Below, piece by piece: positions 291 through 10,855 of a stretch of 10,855 bases of DNA; the stretch's first letter is position 1; every line of letters begins with the position of its first letter. The position numbers and the translations under genes are program-made. This stretch comes from Polyangiales bacterium (GTDB lineage Bacteria; Myxococcota_A; Polyangia; Polyangiales; Polyangiaceae). Where the stretch lies: contig JBBRLQ010000067.1 of the NCBI GenBank assembly GCA_038231275.1, forward strand, positions 1 to 10,855. The letters are read 5' to 3'. The notes under the pieces are model-generated. The model saw only the letters and a program-made list of their open reading frames with translations, had not been told where the DNA came from and searched no databases.

Positions 291-794
291 TCAGCGCGAG
301 GAGGACGAATAGACGCGGGCAAAGAAGTAGCTGTCGACCATCGGATCGCTCGTCGCGGCGTTCGTGCCGGCCGAGACCTTCACCACGTACTCGTCGCATC
401 CCGTCGCGCCCCTGAGCGTGATCGGCTGATCGACCGCGGTGATGGGCGCACGCGCGAGCTCCACCTCGCTGCCCGGCGTACGCCCCATCAGGCGCACGGT
501 GCCGCCGAGGAGGTTCGGCGCCTTCCGTGGGTCGAACGTCACGTCGATGCGCGGGCCCCAGGGAAGGGCGAGGACTTCGCGCTCCATCTTCTCGCGGATG
601 GCGCGGAACGCTTCGCTTCGGACGCTCGTCCAGAAGCGATCGGAGATCCCTCGCATCGAGGGGTCGACGTTGGGGCCGCGGCTGTTGTTGTCGCAGGGCA
701 TCGGGGTCGGATCGAGTTCCATGGTTCGGCTGACTTTCTCGTGAAGGTTGGTGACGTAGGCAAAGAGGCGAAGCACGACGGCCTGGCCGGTCAT
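291..794 (-). CDS. Hypothetical beta-rich protein, 167 aa (possible penton/minor capsid protein)
   Basis: ATG 794 overlaps the upstream stop (ATGA 791-794): MTGQAVVLRLFAYV... The C-terminal half has strand-like segments (RIDVTF, TVRLMG, ITLRG, EYVVKVS, YFFARVY). The track's N-terminal extension to 1115 overlaps the upstream gene and is likely spurious. Confidence 0.7.
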   Translation of the reverse strand: MTGQAVVLRLFAYVTNLHEKVSRTMELDPTPMPCDNNSRGPNVDPSMRGISDRFWTSVRSEAFRAIREKMEREVLALPWGPRIDVTFDPRKAPNLLGGTVRLMGRTPGSEVELARAPITAVDQPITLRGATGCDEYVVKVSAGTNAATSDPMVDSYFFARVYSSSSR

Positions 795-1435
795 CGTTTC
801 GCGTAGGCGAAGAGGAGCACCGGCGTGATGGTCGCCGGGCCGGCCGCCCCCTCGTAGGTGAAGGTGATCGACCACTTCTGAAGCGCGCTGACGGGGTAGC
901 CCTCGTCCTCGCCGTTCGGTCCCTTGAGGCGGAACCACGCGTGCGTGCCCGGTGCGAACGCGATCATCGGAACCGACGCCGGGGCTTGGCCCGTCGTGAA
1001 GAGGTCTTCGCTCCCGTTGATCGTGATGCGCACCGAGACGCGCGAGAGGCTCGCCGGATCGCCGTCGAGCGTGGTCGCGTAGATGGCGGAGGCGAAGCCC
1101 TCGCCGCCCGGCCACTCGACCTTGAGTTGCAGCGAGCTCTCGCCCGGGACGAGCGCGGGCGCGTTTTCGACGCGCACGATCTTCGACGCGCCGAGCGCGG
1201 CGAGCGGTCGGGCGAGCGGCGAGACGACGCGCTCGAGGCGGTCCAAGACCGCCGCGAGACGGTCGCCGGCCGCGCCGCCAGGTGAGCTCACGTCGCCCAT
1301 CGCCGTGGCTTGCTGCTGCTCAGCGCGCGCGCGCCGAAGGAGGCTCACCACCTTGTCCTGGTTCCGCATCGCGACGACCGGATCGGTCCCGGCCTCCGCG
1401 AGCTGGAGAGCGCGATCGAGGTAGGCGGAGTTCAT
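791..1435 (-). CDS. Hypothetical protein, 214 aa; putative single jelly-roll capsid protein
   Basis: True start inferred at ATG 1435 (MNSAYLDRA), with GAGG overlapping the upstream stop. A helical N-terminal ~80 aa is followed by about 8 strand-like segments (KIVRVE, LQLKVEW, ASAIYATT, VSVRITIN, AWFRL, YPV, KWSITFTY, PVLLFAY). The fold is an inference. Confidence 0.65.
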   Translation of the reverse strand: MNSAYLDRALQLAEAGTDPVVAMRNQDKVVSLLRRARAEQQQATAMGDVSSPGGAAGDRLAAVLDRLERVVSPLARPLAALGASKIVRVENAPALVPGESSLQLKVEWPGGEGFASAIYATTLDGDPASLSRVSVRITINGSEDLFTTGQAPASVPMIAFAPGTHAWFRLKGPNGEDEGYPVSALQKWSITFTYEGAAGPATITPVLLFAYAKR

Positions 1436-1443
1436 CGCCGCCC

Positions 1444-2328
1444 TCACTGCTGCTTCGAGCGCGGGGTGATCTCGCGCGTGTGGAGGTACACCACGATGTC
1501 GACAAAGGTCCCGATCGCACCGTCCTGCGTGGGGGGCGCGTACTCGGTGACACCCGGCGCCGCGGCGCGCGAGGTCACGTCGAAGAAGACGTCGCGCTTG
1601 ATCTCGAAGCGCACCTGAAACTTCGAGTCGACCATGCTCGAGGGGTTCCAGCGGATCTTGTCGCTCAACTTGTAGAAGTTGTTCGCGTGCGGCATGCCGT
1701 TCGTCATCGAGCCGACGTGCGCGACGGACTCGCCCACGCCGGGCACGACCGCCCGCGACTCGCCCGAGCCGTAGAGACCGCCCGGGGAGCTGATGCGCCC
1801 GAGGCGCCCGAGGAGCGCGTAGCGCGTGCTCCCGTCGAGCGTGATGTCGGCGAAGCACTCCGACCAGATCAACTTCGCGAGGAAGGCATCGCTCGTTTCG
1901 GAGAGGTGGAGCGAGATGCCGTGGATGTCGACGACCGAGCCGCCGGTGTCGTGCCGGCTGACGAGGTTCGTGTCGGCGTCGTTCGAGCGGTAGCCGGCCG
2001 GGAAGCCGGCGGCCGTCATGTCCTCGCCGCCCGTGCCGTACGAGAAGGCCACGAGCGACTTCTTCGCCAGCGTGTAGCGGAAGGTGGCGGGCGCGTTGGG
2101 GCCCGAGCTGACCTGCGTGACCGTGAAGGGGAAGCGAACCGCCGAGTAGTAGTTCTTCTGCTTCTTCATCACCTGCGAGCCGAGCGACTGGCGCGCGATG
2201 AATTTGCGGATGTGCGGGGGCACGAGGCGCGCCTGCTCGAGCATCTGCTGCCTCTGAAGGGCGTTCATCGCCGGCGACTGCCGCACTGCGCTTGCGACCT
2301 GACCCGCTCCGTTGTTCGTTCCAGCCAT
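1444..2328 (-). CDS. Putative major capsid protein (jelly-roll type), 294 aa
   Basis: Clean ORF with an A-rich leader. An N-terminal arm precedes a beta-rich body (YYSAVRFPFTV, LVAFSYG, DADTNL, VDIHGISLHL, FADITLD, KFQVRFEI, VDIVVYLHTREI). Size and context fit a non-HK97 capsid protein. The CDS is secure; the product is inferred. Confidence 0.65.
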   Translation of the reverse strand: MAGTNNGAGQVASAVRQSPAMNALQRQQMLEQARLVPPHIRKFIARQSLGSQVMKKQKNYYSAVRFPFTVTQVSSGPNAPATFRYTLAKKSLVAFSYGTGGEDMTAAGFPAGYRSNDADTNLVSRHDTGGSVVDIHGISLHLSETSDAFLAKLIWSECFADITLDGSTRYALLGRLGRISSPGGLYGSGESRAVVPGVGESVAHVGSMTNGMPHANNFYKLSDKIRWNPSSMVDSKFQVRFEIKRDVFFDVTSRAAAPGVTEYAPPTQDGAIGTFVDIVVYLHTREITPRSKQQ

Positions 2329-2388: not shown

Positions 2389-2631
2389 TCAGTCGTCGTC
2401 GCCGAACGCCCCGAAGGGATCGTCGAAGCCGTCCATCTCGTCGCCGAAGTCGTCCGCGTCGCCGAGCGTGTCGGCGACCACGACGCCATTGATCGGCTCG
2501 AACCCGTTGATCGGCTCGAAGCCGTCCATCTCGGTGTCGCCGAGCGTGTCGGCCATGACCACGCCCTCCATCTCCGCGTCGCCGAGGGTGTCGGCCATCA
2601 CGACGCCCTCGATGTCGTCCATGCCGCGCAT
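2389..2631 (-). repeat. Coding tandem repeats: GVV(M/V)ADTLGD x3 and FEPING x2
   Basis: Translation MRGMDDIEGVVMADTLGDAEMEGVVMADTLGDTEMDGFEPINGFEPINGVVVADTLGDADDFGDEMDGFDDPFGAFGDDD. The units are 42 nt and 18 nt, with several synonymous differences between copies. Confidence 0.9.
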
Positions 2632-3381
2632 GGCCCGAGCTCCGACCGCCATCATGCGGTTGGGCGCCGCGATGCCGCTGCCCATCCGCGCCGTCGCGGT
2701 CTGACGCTGAAGCGCGTTCGCGGCCTGGCCGCGCGTCGCGCCCGGCGCGAGCGCCCACTGGCCCGCGGCCACCGCGTAGTTGTGCGCGATGAGGGTGCCC
2801 GCCGTCTGGTCGAACATTCCCACCAGCCCGCCGATCACGCTGCCGGCGAGGTTGGCGGCGATGTTCGCTACCTTGCTGTCGGGGCTCAGGTGCGCGATGG
2901 CCGCGCCTCCCGCGAGGCCGGCGACCGCCGCCACGGTGCCGAAGGCCATCGCCTTCATGCCGCGGTGGAGATCCATCGTCTTGTGCTCCTCGGGCGGAGG
3001 GTTCTGCTTGTGCGGGTGATGGCCGGTGTGGGGGTGGTGGCGGCGCTTCTTGCGCGGCTTCTTGGCCGGGTTCGAGGCGTGGCCCAGGTCCGAGGCACGG
3101 ACGAGCACCATGCCCGCGGGCACCGGCCCGCGGCGCTTCGTGCGCTTCTTCCGCGGCTTGGTCGTCCTCGCGGCCCCCGCGTGGTGGGTCGTGGTCGCGC
3201 GTCGCTTCGAGGTCTTCTTCTTCGCCATGACGGGTTCCTGTGCCTTCTTCTTGGGTGCAGCCTTTGGGGCCTTCGCCTTCCGGGTCTTTCCGTGTTTCGG
3301 GCCCACGTGCGCGGGCGCTGGATTCGCCACAGTCGCCTTAACGGCCCCGCGTCTAATCAATGATGCCGCGCTCGTTGACAT
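2389..3381 (-). CDS. Tripartite core/scaffold-like protein, 330 aa: K/R/H-rich N-terminus, hydrophobic middle, acidic repeat tail
   Basis: Basic tracts (KTRKAKAPKAAPKKK, KPRKKRTKRR, KKPRKKRRHHPH), Gly/Ala hydrophobic helices (AMAFGTVAAVAGLAGGAAIA, IAANLAGSVIGGLVGMF) and a D/E-rich repeat tail. Alternative start at ATG 3228 (MAKKKTSKRR). Confidence 0.8.
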   Translation of the reverse strand: MSTSAASLIRRGAVKATVANPAPAHVGPKHGKTRKAKAPKAAPKKKAQEPVMAKKKTSKRRATTTHHAGAARTTKPRKKRTKRRGPVPAGMVLVRASDLGHASNPAKKPRKKRRHHPHTGHHPHKQNPPPEEHKTMDLHRGMKAMAFGTVAAVAGLAGGAAIAHLSPDSKVANIAANLAGSVIGGLVGMFDQTAGTLIAHNYAVAAGQWALAPGATRGQAANALQRQTATARMGSGIAAPNRMMAVGARAMRGMDDIEGVVMADTLGDAEMEGVVMADTLGDTEMDGFEPINGFEPINGVVVADTLGDADDFGDEMDGFDDPFGAFGDDD

Positions 3382-3658
3382 GATAAATTCCGCCTGTGAT
3401 CACGAGGAGGCTCGTGTTTTTCTCGAAGGTGAGGAGCGGCAGGCCCCTCGTGCTGAACGTGTGGTGGTAGTCCGTGGGCATGTGGTCCTTTCCCTTCCGC
3501 GTCCGGTAGACGACCTCGACGAGCTGCCCGAGCTCGACGAGCGGAAGGAGCGGGTTCGCCGCCACCGTGTGCAGAACACGGCCGTTTCCTTCGCGGCCCC
3601 AATGCACGCGCCGAAACTCCTTCTTCGCCTCTGAATCAGTCATCCTTCGCGGTGCCAT
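3353..3658 (-). CDS. Hypothetical small beta protein, 101 aa
   Basis: ATG 3658 with a strong AAGGAGG RBS: MAPRRMTDSEAKKEFRRVHWG...LVELGQLVEVVYRTRK...DYHHTF...LLVITGGIYHVNERGIID. Globular composition. Overlaps both neighbours. Confidence 0.82.
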   Translation of the reverse strand: MAPRRMTDSEAKKEFRRVHWGREGNGRVLHTVAANPLLPLVELGQLVEVVYRTRKGKDHMPTDYHHTFSTRGLPLLTFEKNTSLLVITGGIYHVNERGIID

Positions 3659-4373
3659 CGCTCGGCCCTCCTTTCGGGTGCTTCTTTCGCCAGTACGCCC
3701 ACGCCGCTGCGCCGCCGCCCGCCAGGACGACGCCGCCCACCGCCCACGGAATCCACGTTTGTTGCGTCTCCGACTCGGCGATTGATTTGAAGACGCCCCA
3801 AACCTCCGGGTCGATCTGTCCGTTCCGCGCGAGCTGCTCGCGCGCGAGGTTCGCCACCTCGGAGGCGATCGCCGTCGTCCGAACGTTCCGGCCCTCGACC
3901 TGGATGGTCTCGCGCCGCGTGAAGTACCAGGCGGTCCCCACCACCGCGGCGATCGCGATGACGGTGAGCGCGACGATGAGTCCCCCGGTCGGATCGCCGA
4001 GGGCGAGCGCGGCACTCCGCTGCGCGCCGAGGCCGTTCAGTCGCGGGAGGGCGCCGTCCCACGGCTTCGCTTGCGCGTGGGTCGAGCGCACGAGCGCGTG
4101 CGTCGCGAGGTAGATCGTGCGGACGTCCTCGGGGGCGTGCGCGATGCTCTCGCGCGCGGCGCCCACGGTGACGAGGCCACGTTCCCCGGTGGGAAGCGTG
4201 ATCCAGGGAACCACACCCGCCTCGGCGGCGAGAAACTCCGCATCCAGGAGCGCCGCCATGGCGCCCTGCGTCCAGTCCTCGCCGTCGATGGCGAGCGCGC
4301 CGTCCCCGGCGCGCGCCATGCGGGCGAGCGCGGCCCGCCCCTTCGCGTTGTCGTATTCAAACGTGGCCGCCAT
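3636..4373 (-). CDS. Hypothetical membrane protein, 245 aa, two predicted TM helices
   Basis: AAGGAG RBS. Hydrophobic segments GLIVALTVIAIAAVVGTAWYF-TRR and WIPWAVGGVVLAGGGAAAWAYW-RKK. Confidence 0.85.
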   Translation of the reverse strand: MAATFEYDNAKGRAALARMARAGDGALAIDGEDWTQGAMAALLDAEFLAAEAGVVPWITLPTGERGLVTVGAARESIAHAPEDVRTIYLATHALVRSTHAQAKPWDGALPRLNGLGAQRSAALALGDPTGGLIVALTVIAIAAVVGTAWYFTRRETIQVEGRNVRTTAIASEVANLAREQLARNGQIDPEVWGVFKSIAESETQQTWIPWAVGGVVLAGGGAAAWAYWRKKHPKGGPSDGTAKDD

Positions 4374-4403
4374 GGCGACCGATCTCCTTTCGTGCGGCGA
4401 CTC

Positions 4404-4781
4404 TCATCGCCGGCTCCGCGCGCGCTCTTGCTCGAGCTCCTGTGCGCTGTGGACGGCCCAGACGACCGCGCCGACCGCGACGACGCCGAGCGCGCCCGCC
4501 ACCCACGGGAGCGCGGAGGAGGCTTGGCTCATCGCCGCGCCCGGCGTGAAGCTCATCGGGAAGTAGTCGCCGTCGTCGCTCGAGGGCGGCGAGCTCGCGC
4601 CGCTACTCGACGTACGGACGCCGCCGCCCGGGGCGCGCGGGCGGTCCGCGACGATGGGCGTCCCCCGCTGCGGCAGGGAAGGCGGCTTTGTCTTGAGGAT
4701 GTAGGGCTTGGTGATCGGGGTGTCGTGCTCGATGAAGCGCGTTTGCTCGCCGAGGTCCCCGATGGTGGTCACGCGCTTCAT
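4404..4781 (-). CDS. Hypothetical tail-anchored membrane protein, 125 aa
   Basis: ATG 4781 in an ATGA overlap: MKRVTTIGDLGEQ... Pro/Ser-rich linker, then TM ALPWVAGALGVVAVGAVVWAV. Confidence 0.75.
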   Translation of the reverse strand: MKRVTTIGDLGEQTRFIEHDTPITKPYILKTKPPSLPQRGTPIVADRPRAPGGGVRTSSSGASSPPSSDDGDYFPMSFTPGAAMSQASSALPWVAGALGVVAVGAVVWAVHSAQELEQERARSRR

Positions 4782-5083
4782 CGGTGGCCTTCTTTCTTCG
4801 CGGCGTTCCGCCGGTAGACGTAGACGCCGCCCGCGACCGCACCGACCAGGAGCCCGCCCGCGATGAAGGTGCCGACGCCGCGCGCGGTGTCGTTCATCGC
4901 GTTCTTCACGCCCGCCTCCACGCGCTTCTGCGCGATGCCCGCGGCGCGCTGCGCCTTCTCGTCGACGTACTGGTTGATCTTCGTGTCGACCTTCGAAGGG
5001 ATCTTCCGGATCCCGAACGGGTCGATGAAGTCGGCGAGGTCGCCGAGGGGTTCGTAGCCAATGCCGTAGAGCGGTGCGTTCAT
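4778..5083 (-). CDS. Hypothetical tail-anchored membrane protein, 101 aa
   Basis: ATG 5083 in an ATGA overlap with a GGAGG RBS: MNAPLYGIGYEPLGDLADFIDPFG... TM VGTFIAGGLLVGAVAGGVYVY followed by RR. Confidence 0.8.
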   Translation of the reverse strand: MNAPLYGIGYEPLGDLADFIDPFGIRKIPSKVDTKINQYVDEKAQRAAGIAQKRVEAGVKNAMNDTARGVGTFIAGGLLVGAVAGGVYVYRRNAAKKEGHR

Positions 5084-8669: not shown

Positions 8670-9947
8670 TCAGTTCGGCTTGTTCGAGGGGTCTTTTTTG
8701 GGCGAGCGGATGTCGGGGATCGAGAGCGGGCCCTTTCCATCCATCAGCTTCGCGGCGAAGAATTGCGCGATACCGCCGAGGTGCGGCATGACCTGGACGA
8801 TCGCCTCCCGAATGGGATCGGGCGGGGCGGCAGGCGCCAGGGGCGCGCTCGGTGCCACGCTCCCCTCGGGCACCATGACGTACTCGTCGTCGTCGTCCTC
8901 TTCGTCTGCCTCGTCCTGGCGTTCGACGAGCTTGGTCACGAGCGCGCGGAGTTCGGCCATCTCGGGATCCGGACCCCGCCCACCCCGCCCGATCGCCTTC
9001 GCCTGGAGCTCCATCTGCACGATGCGCTCCTTGGACGCGAGGCGCTCGCGCTCCATCTGAAGGTCCATCTCCGCGCGGTAGCGCGCTTCGCGCTCCTTGG
9101 TCTCGCCGCTGATGCGCTGGAGCTCCTGATGGGACAGCGCCCGCGCCTCGGCGTGGGCGCGCGCCTCGGCGTCGCGCATGTACGTAATCACGGCCCACGG
9201 GTCCATCAGCGTTCCTAGGGCCGTCTGGGGCGCAGGAACGGGCATCGACGGAGGGGGTGGGGGTGCGGGCATCGGTACCGCCGCCGGCAACGGAGCCTCG
9301 TCCGGGAGCGGCGGGCCGGCGGCGATGGCGGAGCGTCCTTGCACGAGAAGCGCGCGCGACCGACCTACGGGGCGCCGCTTGCCGTCCTCGACCATGATGT
9401 ACTGGACGACGTACTGACCATCGCCCCAGCGGTCGGCGATGAGGTCCGCCGAGCACGTTCGGATCGGCCACTCGTTCGCGAAGATGCCGTCCCCCTTCGC
9501 GTCGAAGGTCAGAAGCTTTCGGTATCCCGAGGGCTCCAGGCGAAAGCATCGCCAGTCCGTCGCCTTCTCCGATCGCTGCCCGAGCCGCTGATCCTTCGCC
9601 ATCGCCCTACCTCGCTCCTTTGGGGTCTCCTCCCGCGCACCGCCGTCCGAGCACTCCTCGACGACGGCGGTCGGCGCCGCCGGTTCGGCCTCCCCTTCGT
9701 CTTCCTCGTCGCCTTCGTCTTCCTCGTCGTCCGTCTCGTCCTCCTCCTCGTCGTCTTCGTCACTGAGGGCGGTGGCGGCGCCGCTCGCGGCGTCCGCGGC
9801 CACCTCCCACAGCTCGACGTCGTCGCCGTCCGCGCGCGCCTTCGCCTCGTCGGCGCAGAGCGCGGCCACCGTGCTGAGTACCGAGGCCGGCCCGTGCGCC
9901 ACGAGCAGGGCTCGAAGCTCTCCAAGCTGTCGCGTTGAATCGTCCAT
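8670..9947 (-). CDS. Hypothetical acidic/Pro-rich coiled-coil protein, 425 aa (310 aa from internal start 9602)
   Basis: ATG 9947 (MDDSTRQL). Helical N-domain, D/E tract, globular domain (IADRWGDGQYVVQY), poly-Pro linker, coiled coil and a second acidic tract. Internal ATG 9602 has AAGGAG and GAGGT upstream. Confidence 0.75.
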   Translation of the reverse strand: MDDSTRQLGELRALLVAHGPASVLSTVAALCADEAKARADGDDVELWEVAADAASGAATALSDEDDEEEDETDDEEDEGDEEDEGEAEPAAPTAVVEECSDGGAREETPKERGRAMAKDQRLGQRSEKATDWRCFRLEPSGYRKLLTFDAKGDGIFANEWPIRTCSADLIADRWGDGQYVVQYIMVEDGKRRPVGRSRALLVQGRSAIAAGPPLPDEAPLPAAVPMPAPPPPPSMPVPAPQTALGTLMDPWAVITYMRDAEARAHAEARALSHQELQRISGETKEREARYRAEMDLQMERERLASKERIVQMELQAKAIGRGGRGPDPEMAELRALVTKLVERQDEADEEDDDDEYVMVPEGSVAPSAPLAPAAPPDPIREAIVQVMPHLGGIAQFFAAKLMDGKGPLSIPDIRSPKKDPSNKPN

Positions 9948-9956
9948 CGCTACTTC

Positions 9957-9975
9957 CGAGACGTCGCGCGTCTCG
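9957..9975. repeat. Inverted repeat just upstream of the first operon gene
   Basis: CGAGACG-TCGCG-CGTCTCG, perfect 7-bp arms, 9 nt from ATG 9947. Confidence 0.45.
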
Positions 9976-10001
9976 CTCCCATGAAAAGCCAACTCAGGAA
10001 A

Positions 10002-10017
10002 CTGAAGAACTGTTCCG
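10002..10017. promoter_or_regulatory. Possible LexA (SOS) box, Myxococcus type
   Basis: CTGAAG-AACT-GTTCCG matches the palindrome CTGAAC-N4-GTTCAG at 5/6 per arm. It lies in an AT-richer patch ~55 nt upstream of ATG 9947. Confidence 0.4.
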
Positions 10018-10055
10018 AACGATGGGGGTGCAAGCGCAAGTCCATGCGCGCGCCC

Positions 10056-10526
10056 CACGTGCACGGTGCGGAGAGTCACGTGCGAGCCACGCAGACCGAG
10101 CGCGTGGCTCACGCGAACGGAGCGCGTGAACCACGCGGAAGGCACGCGCGATTCACGCAAAATCCACGCGAATCACCGAGCCATTCACGTGAGGCGTGCG
10201 TGCCCGAAGACGTGATTTTTGCGTGGCTCACGCGTGGTTTCCGCGCTCCCTCCGCGTGGCTCGCGCGTGCCCTCGACGTGATTTCGGAGAGGCCCCCCGT
10301 ACCTTCCACGCTCCGTCCACGTGCCTCGCGCGTGAAGCGCGCGCGGTGCGACGTGCCCCGCGCGTGAATTCGGACGGAGGCTGCGCACCTCGCGCGTGAA
10401 TCCCGAACCTCGCTGCGCTCCGCACGCGTGACTTCGCGCGCGCACTGCGTGACCCCCGCAACGTCGCTCCGCACTTTCGCGACGGCGTTCCGCACACTTC
10501 GCGTGGCGCTTCGAAATGTGCACGTG
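10056..10526. repeat. Helically phased, mirror-symmetric CACG/CGTG array
   Basis: CACG at 10077, 10088, 10110, 10132, 10143, 10154, 10165. Palindrome TCACGTGA at 10185-10192. CGTG at 10211, 10222, 10233, 10255, 10266, 10277, then 10320, 10331, 10352, 10363, 10395, 10427, 10448, 10502, 10523. Confidence 0.85.
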
Positions 10527-10652
10527 GCGATCGCTTTTCGCGCAACATTTTTCTCCAAGGCGCCGCTGTCGTGGCCGTGCCGAACGGCACACCCCACGTG
10601 CCCCGCCCGCTCTCTCCTGTCGTCGTTCCGTGCCCCGCTCTTCATGAGGAGG

Positions 10653-10684
10653 AATCTACGGGCCCCACGCGACAGAACTTGTCA
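10653..10684 (-). promoter_or_regulatory. Putative WYL-activator-dependent promoter (PafBC/RecA-NDp-like) facing the operon
   Basis: The minus strand reads TGACAAGTTC-TGTCGC-GTGGGGCCCG-TAGATT. This is a GACA-N5-TGTC palindrome (10671-10683) plus TGTCG(C)-N10-TA-N3-T with the -10 at 10658-10653. It lies ~30 nt from a divergent HTH gene. Confidence 0.6.
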
Positions 10685-10715
10685 GGTTGGACGCCCGTGA
10701 ATTGCAGGCCCAATC

Positions 10716-10855
10716 ATGCGTGACGATGCCTCGACCCCGAAGAGCCGCTTCTTTCTCGCGCAAACCTTGGTGCGCCGTCCTGGCGGCGTGACGTTGCGCG
10801 CCCTGACGGAACGACTCGGCGTCTGCGAGCGCACCGCGCTCCGCTACCTCCGGGA
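10716..10855 (+). CDS. Helix-turn-helix transcriptional regulator, N-terminus (HTH_11/DeoR-like; probably WYL-domain family), runs off the edge
   Basis: Manual translation MRDDASTPKSRFFLAQTLVRRPGGVTLRALTERLGVCERTALRYLR matches the T..L.E.LGV..RT..RY wHTH pattern of YafY/PafB-like regulators. The WYL domain itself is outside the window. Not in the ORF track. Confidence 0.75.
   Translation, partial: MRDDASTPKSRFFLAQTLVRRPGGVTLRALTERLGVCERTALRYLR

Follow-up and report, generated by a model that had tools for sequence, protein, structure and literature searches.

Segrosomes, origin complexes and enhancers are large protein-DNA assemblies that form on helically phased sites in plasmids, phages and chromosomes. 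In the Escherichia coli origin, oriC, two opposed arrays of low-affinity DnaA sites set in an 11-bp register guide oligomer growth, and classical iterons are 17-22 bp long and spaced ~22 bp apart. PhoB/PhoP-type (OmpR/PhoB) operators consist of head-to-tail 11-nt direct repeats, known operators of WYL regulators consist of one or two dyads or palindromes, and heteroimmune phages differ from one another in the sequence of their operator sites. R1 parC is described as two sets of five 11-bp iterons that bind about one ParR dimer each, on curved DNA that serves as both operator and centromere (PMC2241845).

We analysed the whole of contig C67 (10,855 bp; hereafter the window) from a Polyangiaceae assembly of 9.28 Mb, 69% GC and 164 contigs. 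By codon-phase GC content, minus-strand genes follow one another without a break from 9947 down to position 1, a plus-strand gene begins at 10716, and 9948-10715 is non-coding. This interval holds ~25 short boxes spread over 470 bp (~44 helical turns), one per turn, between an operon of roughly 16 genes and a truncated, divergent gene for a YafY/WYL-type regulator (Table 1). The operon belongs to a rare, uncharacterised mobile element about 20 kb long that is almost wholly unannotated. Phased iteron-like arrays are already known; what is new here is the length of the array, unusual at ~25 sites, its bipolar polarity and the exchange of the box between sister elements. A literature search of limited coverage returned no description of such an array, nor of Polyangiaceae plasmids or viruses, and we know of no described plasmid or virus of this family; the partition papers on pMF1 reportedly concern a different myxobacterial plasmid.

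Table 1 Features of the intergenic array and its flanks, in window coordinates
Feature	Position	Strand or setting	Remarks
First operon gene	8670..9947	-	425 aa, acidic and coiled-coil regions, no known family
Promoter-like block	9991..10045	-	common to C67 and C95, faces the operon
Phased CACG/CGTG array	10056..10526	intergenic, between operon and divergent regulator gene	read from sequence
Near arm (operon side)	10056..10168		CACG-oriented boxes on + strand
Two 15-bp dyads, CGCGTG-N3-CACGCG	10101..10137		10101-10115 and 10123-10137, 22 bp apart
Central palindrome TCACGTGA	10185..10192		point of box-polarity flip
Far arm (regulator side)	10188..10526		18 CGTG-oriented boxes, overall period 10.8 bp
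Short block TCGCTTTTCGCGCAA (+ strand)	10531..10545		outer end of the array; also at the outer end of the C95 array
Outlying box-like copy CGCCCGTGAATT	10692..10703	+	13 bp upstream of the regulator start codon
Divergent regulator gene	10716..10853	+	N-terminal HTH of YafY/WYL type; cut by the contig end after 46 codons

Counting positions along the sequence reproduced the layout on which the original prediction was built. Seven near-arm boxes stand in an exact 11-bp register, with CACG at 10077, 10088, 10110, 10132, 10143, 10154 and 10165, and two further plus-strand boxes lie at 10056 and 10062. Beyond the TCACGTGA palindrome, CGTG cores occur at 10211, 10222, 10233, 10255, 10266 and 10277 and continue at steps of 43, 11, 21, 11, 32, 32, 21, 54 and 21 bp to end at 10523; the far arm is dense, with 11-bp steps, from 10211 to 10277 and proceeds by 21- and 32-bp steps further out. 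The inner arms form an inverted repeat that matches at 13 of 15 positions. Six CACGTG hexamers are present in the intergenic region (10056, 10077, 10186, 10318, 10521 and 10595), one of them within the central palindrome, and the two CGCGTG-N3-CACGCG dyads of the near arm are candidate dimer sites. The box itself is wider than its 4-bp core and reads roughly c-R-CGTG-R-m-t.

The interval 10056-10526 contains 15 of the 108 CACG and 22 of the 105 CGTG tetramers of the window, which corresponds to 32 and 47 per kb as opposed to 9 and 8 in the remainder. Together they number 37, whereas 1000 shuffles that preserve dinucleotides gave 13.1 ± 2.9 and at most 22, and the locus is the densest of all 470-bp windows of the genome (35 CACG plus CGTG, against a mean of 8.0 and a standard deviation of 3.1). 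At the six next-densest loci, which were inspected, most spacings are multiples of 3, and these loci resemble Cys-rich coding repeats. The phasing predicted for both arms is seen in the Rayleigh spectra: the 18 right-arm CGTG cores peak at 10.8 bp, a power matched by none of 1000 random placements, and the 10 left-arm CACG cores at 11.0 bp, matched by 10 of 1000. Same-orientation pairs at most 120 bp apart fall within 1 bp of a multiple of 10.8 bp in 98 of 157 cases, where ~28% would be expected, and A/T content is also periodic at 10.8 bp (power 10.4; the highest value among 400 genomic windows was 9.3). The mirror symmetry that had been claimed holds for polarity, which changes from 9 CACG and 4 CGTG to the left of 10187 to 5 and 18 to its right (Fisher p = 0.011), but not for arm length, the near arm measuring ~110 bp and the far arm ~340 bp. 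The best inverted repeat is centred at 10184 or 10189.5 and is offset from the palindrome centre at 10188.5.

The array is non-coding, as anticipated: GC content by codon phase is flat over 9961-10700, every flanking gene has a GC3 of 0.8-0.98, and none of the six ORFs overlapping the array matches Pfam at E <= 0.1. Its own genome contains the stretch once only. A comparison of the intergenic DNA with 41 related genomes gave only chance-level matches of 31-53 bp (E 4e-5 to 7e-4) and no homologous region.

A second array is found in the same assembly. Contig C95 encodes a paralogue of the 425-aa first operon protein (63% identity), and upstream of the same conserved promoter-like block lies an array of the same architecture that uses another box, GGTGCC/GGCACC. 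Its 14 RRTGCC/GGTGSG boxes reach a Rayleigh power of 12.4 out of a possible 14 at 10.9 bp, with steps of 21, 11, 10, 11, 21, 33, 22, 22, 44, 11, 22, 11 and 11 bp; the orientation flips across AATGCCCC-N17-GGGGCATT to GGCACC boxes at steps of 11, 11, 12 and 43 bp, and the contig stops inside the array. Exact GGTGCC/GGCACC hexamers number 13, compared with 0.52 in shuffles. Specificity has changed while the geometry was kept, which neither an RNA nor a composition effect would predict. Other loci dense in these hexamers, on contigs C33 and C2, are coding repeats. Relatives of the first protein were otherwise found at one locus in genome contigs (G015:C242), at one short metagenome locus (L019) and at none in viral contigs. 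In G015:C242 and L019 no phased array lies upstream of the homologous first gene, so that the operon can be controlled without one.

The promoter-like block shared by the two elements follows the pattern ATGGAC-N5-CTTGCAC-N6-CGTTCGGAACA-N-TTCTTC ... GAGTT and stands between the array and the first gene in both. Allowing up to 3 mismatches, it occurs solely at these two sites in 383 genomes of the family, and it has 0 matches among viral contigs. The consensus sequences TGG-N9-TTGCA and GGAAC-N18-GTT mark sigma-54 (-24/-12) and ECF promoters, respectively. The block fits the former, conserved in both elements with a variable spacer, although its -24 element differs at 3 positions from TGGCAC; it also fits the latter in an overlapping position, which leaves the promoter type ambiguous. 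Measured from the start of the block, near-arm box centres lie at -121.5, -99.5, -88.5 and -66.5 (C95: -119.5, -98.5, -87.5 and -64.5) and far-arm centres at -167.5, -178.5 and -189.5 (C95: -168.5, -179.5 and -190.5); with two arrays only, this agreement in register is statistically weak (p about 0.24 in one arm and about 0.35 in the other).

Sampled words of 9700-10855 were matched in 13 runs from 9 studies, none on record as RNA, and near-identical copies of this segment come from sediment, soil, aquatic, glacier and biocrust metagenomes. Contigs X1, X3 and X4 among the runs extend 149-262 bp past position 10855, and an 18,496-bp contig carries a 442-aa protein in identical form. Contigs were compared from four runs of four studies, whose pieces tile the array at ~95-100% identity. 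Among the variants listed, 22 positions lie inside 10056-10526, and all of them avoid the 138 positions that belong to cores (hypergeometric P = 4e-4). As judged from these variants, the 4-bp cores are under selection. The CGTG at 10576, outside 10056-10526, is struck by variants, and some of the outlying cores past 10526 are therefore probably not genuine sites. The general idea of the original prediction, that proteins load along a single face of the helix, has good support from the 10.8-11 bp register, by the C95 array with its different box and by variants that avoid the cores.

The same variants help to assess whether the mirrored arms could act through base pairing, either as a structured RNA or as a cruciform or hairpin in DNA, the paired arms serving as a leader or processing signal. 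Minus-strand RNA from 10070-10300 folds to -139.2 kcal/mol (z = -8.9), with arms 77-80% complementary across 35-39 nt. However, the pairing clusters in the boxes (20 of 23 core-core positions pair, as opposed to 42 of 93 elsewhere), the arms pair in several registers, each shifted by one 11-bp repeat unit, the far arm is three times as long as the near arm, and a 10.8-bp period is meaningless for a stem. Folding of the C95 array is weak (z = -3.0, with 2 of 200 shuffles equally good). No pair is compensated among the 14 natural variants, which disrupt 6 of the 11 paired positions of the minus-strand fold and 7 of the 9 of the plus-strand fold and shift the minus-strand minimum free energy to a weaker -120.9 kcal/mol. 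A search of Rfam returned no family at gathering score, its three hits to miRNA precursors lying far below (e.g. 31.9 vs 268 bits). A transcript from a promoter at 10653 had been supposed to cross the array; a sigma-70 scan of 9900-10855 found no promoter there or elsewhere in that interval, and none was found that reads across the array. The promoter-like block lies downstream of the array, which would hence not be transcribed from it. Weak folding of the sister array, uncompensated variants and the lack of a promoter across the region leave the stem unsupported, and we consider it the least probable of the explanations discussed here; in our view the hairpin is a side effect of the mirrored box arrangement.

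Based on these data, we tentatively favour a mechanism in which a filament formed cooperatively on the array acts as operator/enhancer of the divergent promoters of a mobile element. The ~25 sites would constitute a track for an oligomerising, element-specific DNA-binding protein and, because they recur at each helical turn, all bound protomers would occupy one face of the DNA. A symmetric dimer may nucleate at CACGTG dyads, after which protomers would be added head-to-tail and outward in both directions, in keeping with a polarity that is mirrored about the central dyad. On one side the filament could reach the conserved promoter-like block of the operon and on the other the promoter of the divergent YafY/WYL regulator gene, and it would repress (or, less likely, activate) the operon until the state of the regulator alters. 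The array is flanked by divergent genes, it abuts the conserved promoter-like block, and a box-like copy precedes the start of the regulator gene, all of which argue for such a control function.

The product of the divergent gene is the best candidate for the protein that binds the array. Its 46-aa N-terminus, of the HTH-WYL kind, is 78% identical over these 46 aa to a 328-aa HTH_11+WYL+PF25583 protein (P0002), relatives of which occur in 246 of 383 genomes of the family (E <= 1e-20). No contig end of the assembly carries a WYL gene that would complete the cut regulator, and the genome holds no paralogue of it. The arrangement resembles WYL systems such as CapW/BrxR, PafBC and DriD in that the regulator gene diverges from the operon that it possibly controls. 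It is also similar to OmpR/PhoB-type operators, with head-to-tail sites 11 bp apart, and to multi-site phage switch regions (Mu O1-O3); like heteroimmune phages, the sister elements differ in site sequence. However, ~25 sites over 44 turns far exceed the one or two palindromes of known WYL operators, which counts against this reading. The closest relatives of the regulator that were examined also lack arrays: the two nearest to P0002 (L029 and L030, each 57% identical) have intergenic regions of ~150 bp with no array, and a scan for phased 5-mers upstream of eight YafY-like relatives (L029-L036) gave one weak match, at L034. Together with the array-less G015:C242 and L019, this weighs against the control function.

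In another version of this control function, which is possible, the array would be an enhancer for a sigma-54 activator. The host genome has 89 matches to the sigma-54 activator domain (Sigma54_activat), which makes a sigma-54 promoter with an upstream enhancer plausible in this organism. As in the NtrC sites upstream of glnAp2, phased sites lie ~60-170 bp upstream of a possible -24/-12 promoter, and the C95 box GGTGCC resembles an NtrC half-site. Known sigma-54 enhancers, however, contain 2-5 dyad sites, whereas ~25 mostly tandem half-sites are present here; in addition, the element (C67 plus C71) has no sigma-54 activator gene, and the ECF-type reading of the promoter fits equally well.

A count of ~25 sites would suit centromeres better than operators, and the main rival to the control filament is a centromere-like partition site, possibly also an operator in the manner of R1 parC, whose segrosome would be moved by a partition NTPase. 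A small binder, for example one ribbon-helix-helix dimer per 11-bp unit, would coat both arms. R1 parC (PMC2241845) is matched in its 11-bp unit, in its short core and in having two repeat clusters beside a promoter (here a promoter-like block). Sister elements found together in one assembly differ in their boxes, a requirement for compatible partition systems, and G015:C242, an apparently circular relative, encodes ParA and a NikA-like RHH protein. The gene content nevertheless does not support the original prediction of a centromere: Pfam detects no ParA, ParM, TubZ or RHH gene in the 18.3 kb assembled from C67 plus C71, an element that is incomplete past 10855. In G015 the par genes are 3-4 kb away, and only a few palindromes of other sequence lie upstream of parA. 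R1 has 10 iterons, all in direct orientation, which flank a 39-bp promoter segment next to parM/parR, whereas the present locus has ~25 boxes in two opposed arms over 470 bp, no adjacent par genes, GC-rich DNA and only 4-7 conserved bp per unit. Moreover, this copy may be integrated in the chromosome, in which case partition would not be needed. A centromere is therefore possible but on balance unlikely.

An origin of replication is less likely than a centromere, and quite improbable. Here the two opposed arrays would be iterons that load an element-encoded initiator as two filaments. Two oppositely oriented site arrays in an 11-bp register reproduce the oriC layout, gene orientation diverges at the array, helically phased direct repeats, a feature of iteron origins, are present, and the different boxes of the sister elements agree with iteron incompatibility. 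The equivalent intergenic region of G015:C242 comes after the gene of a 544-aa protein of unknown family with a homologue in the present element (26% identity, E = 7e-14), and the cumulative GC skew is lowest just upstream of that region, a signal too weak to place an origin. Nevertheless, the iteron origin that had been suggested is not supported by the sequence, in which no recognisable rep gene adjoins the array and neither a DnaA-box-like site nor an AT-rich unwinding stretch is present. No 9-mer within 2 mismatches of the DnaA box occurs in 9948-10715 (background 0.43 per 768 bp), and the lowest 30-bp GC content, 40% at 9980-9985, lies outside the array; in both respects the array is unlike oriC. 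The flanking genes encode the YafY-like regulator and the 425-aa protein of no known family, and Pfam, PHROGs, NCBIfam and PADLOC recognise no rep family among the C67 and C71 genes. The spacing of ~22 bp in classical iterons, rather than 11, also argues against this reading, and G015 has no array at the equivalent place. Finally, a single host initiator cannot serve both arrays, since the box of the sister element is different.

The gene content of the element and its relatives provides further context. C67 is joined to C71 by an identical overlap of 141 bp, giving 18.3 kb of assembled element. C71 adds patatin-like, SprT-like and MerR genes and runs into histidine-kinase and KaiC-like genes, which is why this copy may be chromosomally integrated. 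The 22.3-kb G015:C242 is syntenic with C67 over 11 genes, looks circular because its contig ends overlap within one gene, and carries ParA, NikA-like RHH, MerR, WGR and SLT domains. Operon proteins gave no informative match in PHROGs, PADLOC or NCBIfam, and otherwise none in Pfam; in NCBIfam, two C71 proteins have sub-threshold matches only (patatin-like and HspR-like). For the first operon protein, the ESM Atlas offers only weak leads (0.85) to viral hypothetical proteins. The 348-aa SLT-like protein is present in only 2 of 383 Polyangiaceae genomes and has no tblastn match in plasmid and phage collections.

The possibility that the element is virus-like arises from its 294-aa operon protein, which has 230 relatives in a representative library and a neighbour of 217 aa. 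Its structural model (pLDDT 92.9) predicts a jelly roll with a capsid-like fold, and the best matches of this model are capsid proteins of membrane-containing viruses, SPV1 (Z 7.8) and HHIV-2 (7.2), followed by HCIV-1 (6.5) and P23-77 VP17 (5.6) and VP16 (5.0); Foldseek yields only weak capsid-type matches. The array might then be a packaging or genome-wrapping signal, its boxes bound by a small terminase-like or capsid-associated protein that bends the DNA and so initiates encapsidation. The predicted resemblance to membrane-virus capsid proteins, the many small operon proteins with one predicted membrane segment and the A/T content phased at 10.8 bp, suggestive of bendable DNA, are consistent with this. 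Yet the capsid fold matches are middling (Z under 8), C67, C71 and G015:C242 contain no terminase, portal or Walker-A packaging ATPase, related elements lack the array, as do three distant jelly-roll-carrying elements (L054-L056), and nothing links the array specifically to packaging, which we regard as very improbable. Given the middling Z scores and the lack of a packaging ATPase, the viral nature of the element is a lead rather than a finding.

A bolder proposal would unite several of these features. The array may be a bipolar filament track of an undescribed kind, in which a central dimer starts an outward polymerisation over more than 40 turns with one protomer per turn; its code would be exchangeable as a cassette (CRCGTGR vs GGTGCC) while the promoter geometry stays fixed, and it would act as the immunity switch and centromere-like maintenance site of a new, globally distributed Myxococcota element lineage with a jelly-roll capsid-like protein. 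We consider this proposal decidedly unlikely. Should the array turn out to serve in maintenance or as a switch, it may also yield components of genetic tools for natural-product producers that are hard to engineer. Independently of its function, the C67 and C95 arrays form a natural pair, with the same layout and promoter block and unrelated boxes, which makes each a ready specificity control for the other in biochemical work and offers a clear example in which to ask how a DNA-binding protein and dozens of sites change specificity together.

These two arrays were also the strongest non-coding ones in a genome-wide scan for phased 5-mers, which otherwise returned mostly background. Among the loci of YafY-like relatives, L034 has one weak phased 5-mer match (ACGCG, 6 copies), and L032 has only a 42-bp tandem repeat, located downstream of the YafY-like gene. 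The genome-wide scan also detected an unrelated non-coding array with a spacing of 21-22 bp on contig C83.

The 294-aa protein encoded near the start of the window (see table), for which 230 relatives were found, is confidently modeled as a jelly roll whose top structural matches are the single-jelly-roll capsid proteins of the membrane-containing viruses SPV1, HHIV-2, HCIV-1 and P23-77 (Z 5-7.8). Judged by its sequence, its 217-aa neighbor appears to be beta-rich. The element carrying the jelly-roll protein may represent a virus-like lineage of Myxococcota that is new. A search for a packaging ATPase gave none in the window, in C71 (the contig joined to it by overlap) or in G015:C242, a related contig of another genome.

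Feature coordinates in the element and in related or compared loci
Feature	Locus	Position	Strand or setting
294-aa jelly-roll protein	window	1447-2328	(-)
217-aa adjacent protein	window	794-1444	(-)
Protein with basic N-terminal half	window	2392-3381	(-)
530-aa protein, adjoins MerR	L022 (G000:C71)	3365-4954	(-)
Palindromes CATGGACCGTGGTCCAT and ATGGAGCGCACTCCAT; motif CCATGGAAYGAACCGTGGAATG	L021; L019	5750-5800 and 9700-9800; 530-560	palindromes upstream of parA in G015; motif in G015 and L019
Direct repeats of CTGGCGACCTC, n=5, spacing 21-22 bp	L024 (G000:C83)	2530-2640	intergenic
42-bp tandem repeats, n=3, and hexamer run	L032 (G423:C718)	1240-1400 and 3250-3350	

The protein encoded at 2392-3381 combines an extremely basic, Lys/Arg/His-rich N-terminal half with a single predicted membrane segment and a C-terminus that is acidic and bears GVVMADTLGD repeats. 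The 530-aa protein of C71 matched no known family. It has a homologue in G015 (26% identity, E = 7e-14), a 544-aa protein located before the intergenic region equivalent to the array region; an identical 442-aa form of the C71 protein lies on an 18,496-bp contig of a different assembly.

G015:C242 (L020+L021; 22,321 bp) is syntenic with the window contig across 11 genes and encodes ParA, a NikA-like RHH protein, MerR, and WGR and SLT domains. Because its two ends overlap inside a transglutaminase-like gene, this contig is probably a circular element of ~22 kb. The motif CCATGGAAYGAACCGTGGAATG lies 5' of the gene homologous to the operon's first gene, both here and in the short metagenome locus L019; it has ATGGA in common with the conserved block of the window contig and C95, the contig of the same assembly with a paralogous element.

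In one contig of the metagenome run X3, position 10651 is joined to 10717, and the 65 missing bp comprise the stretch immediately 5' of the start codon of the YafY-like regulator together with that codon's first base. This contig represents a naturally occurring variant with a deletion in the promoter region of the regulator.

The sigma-54 activator domain has 89 matches in the whole host genome, of which 81 reach E <= 1e-35; the host's complement of enhancer-binding proteins is unusually large. The same genome holds an iteron-like CTGGCGACCTC array on a 4-kb contig, for which no connection to the window contig or C95 was found. At L032, the 42-bp repeats lie immediately 3' of a YafY homologue, and a CACGCG/CACGTT hexamer run is located ~2 kb from them.
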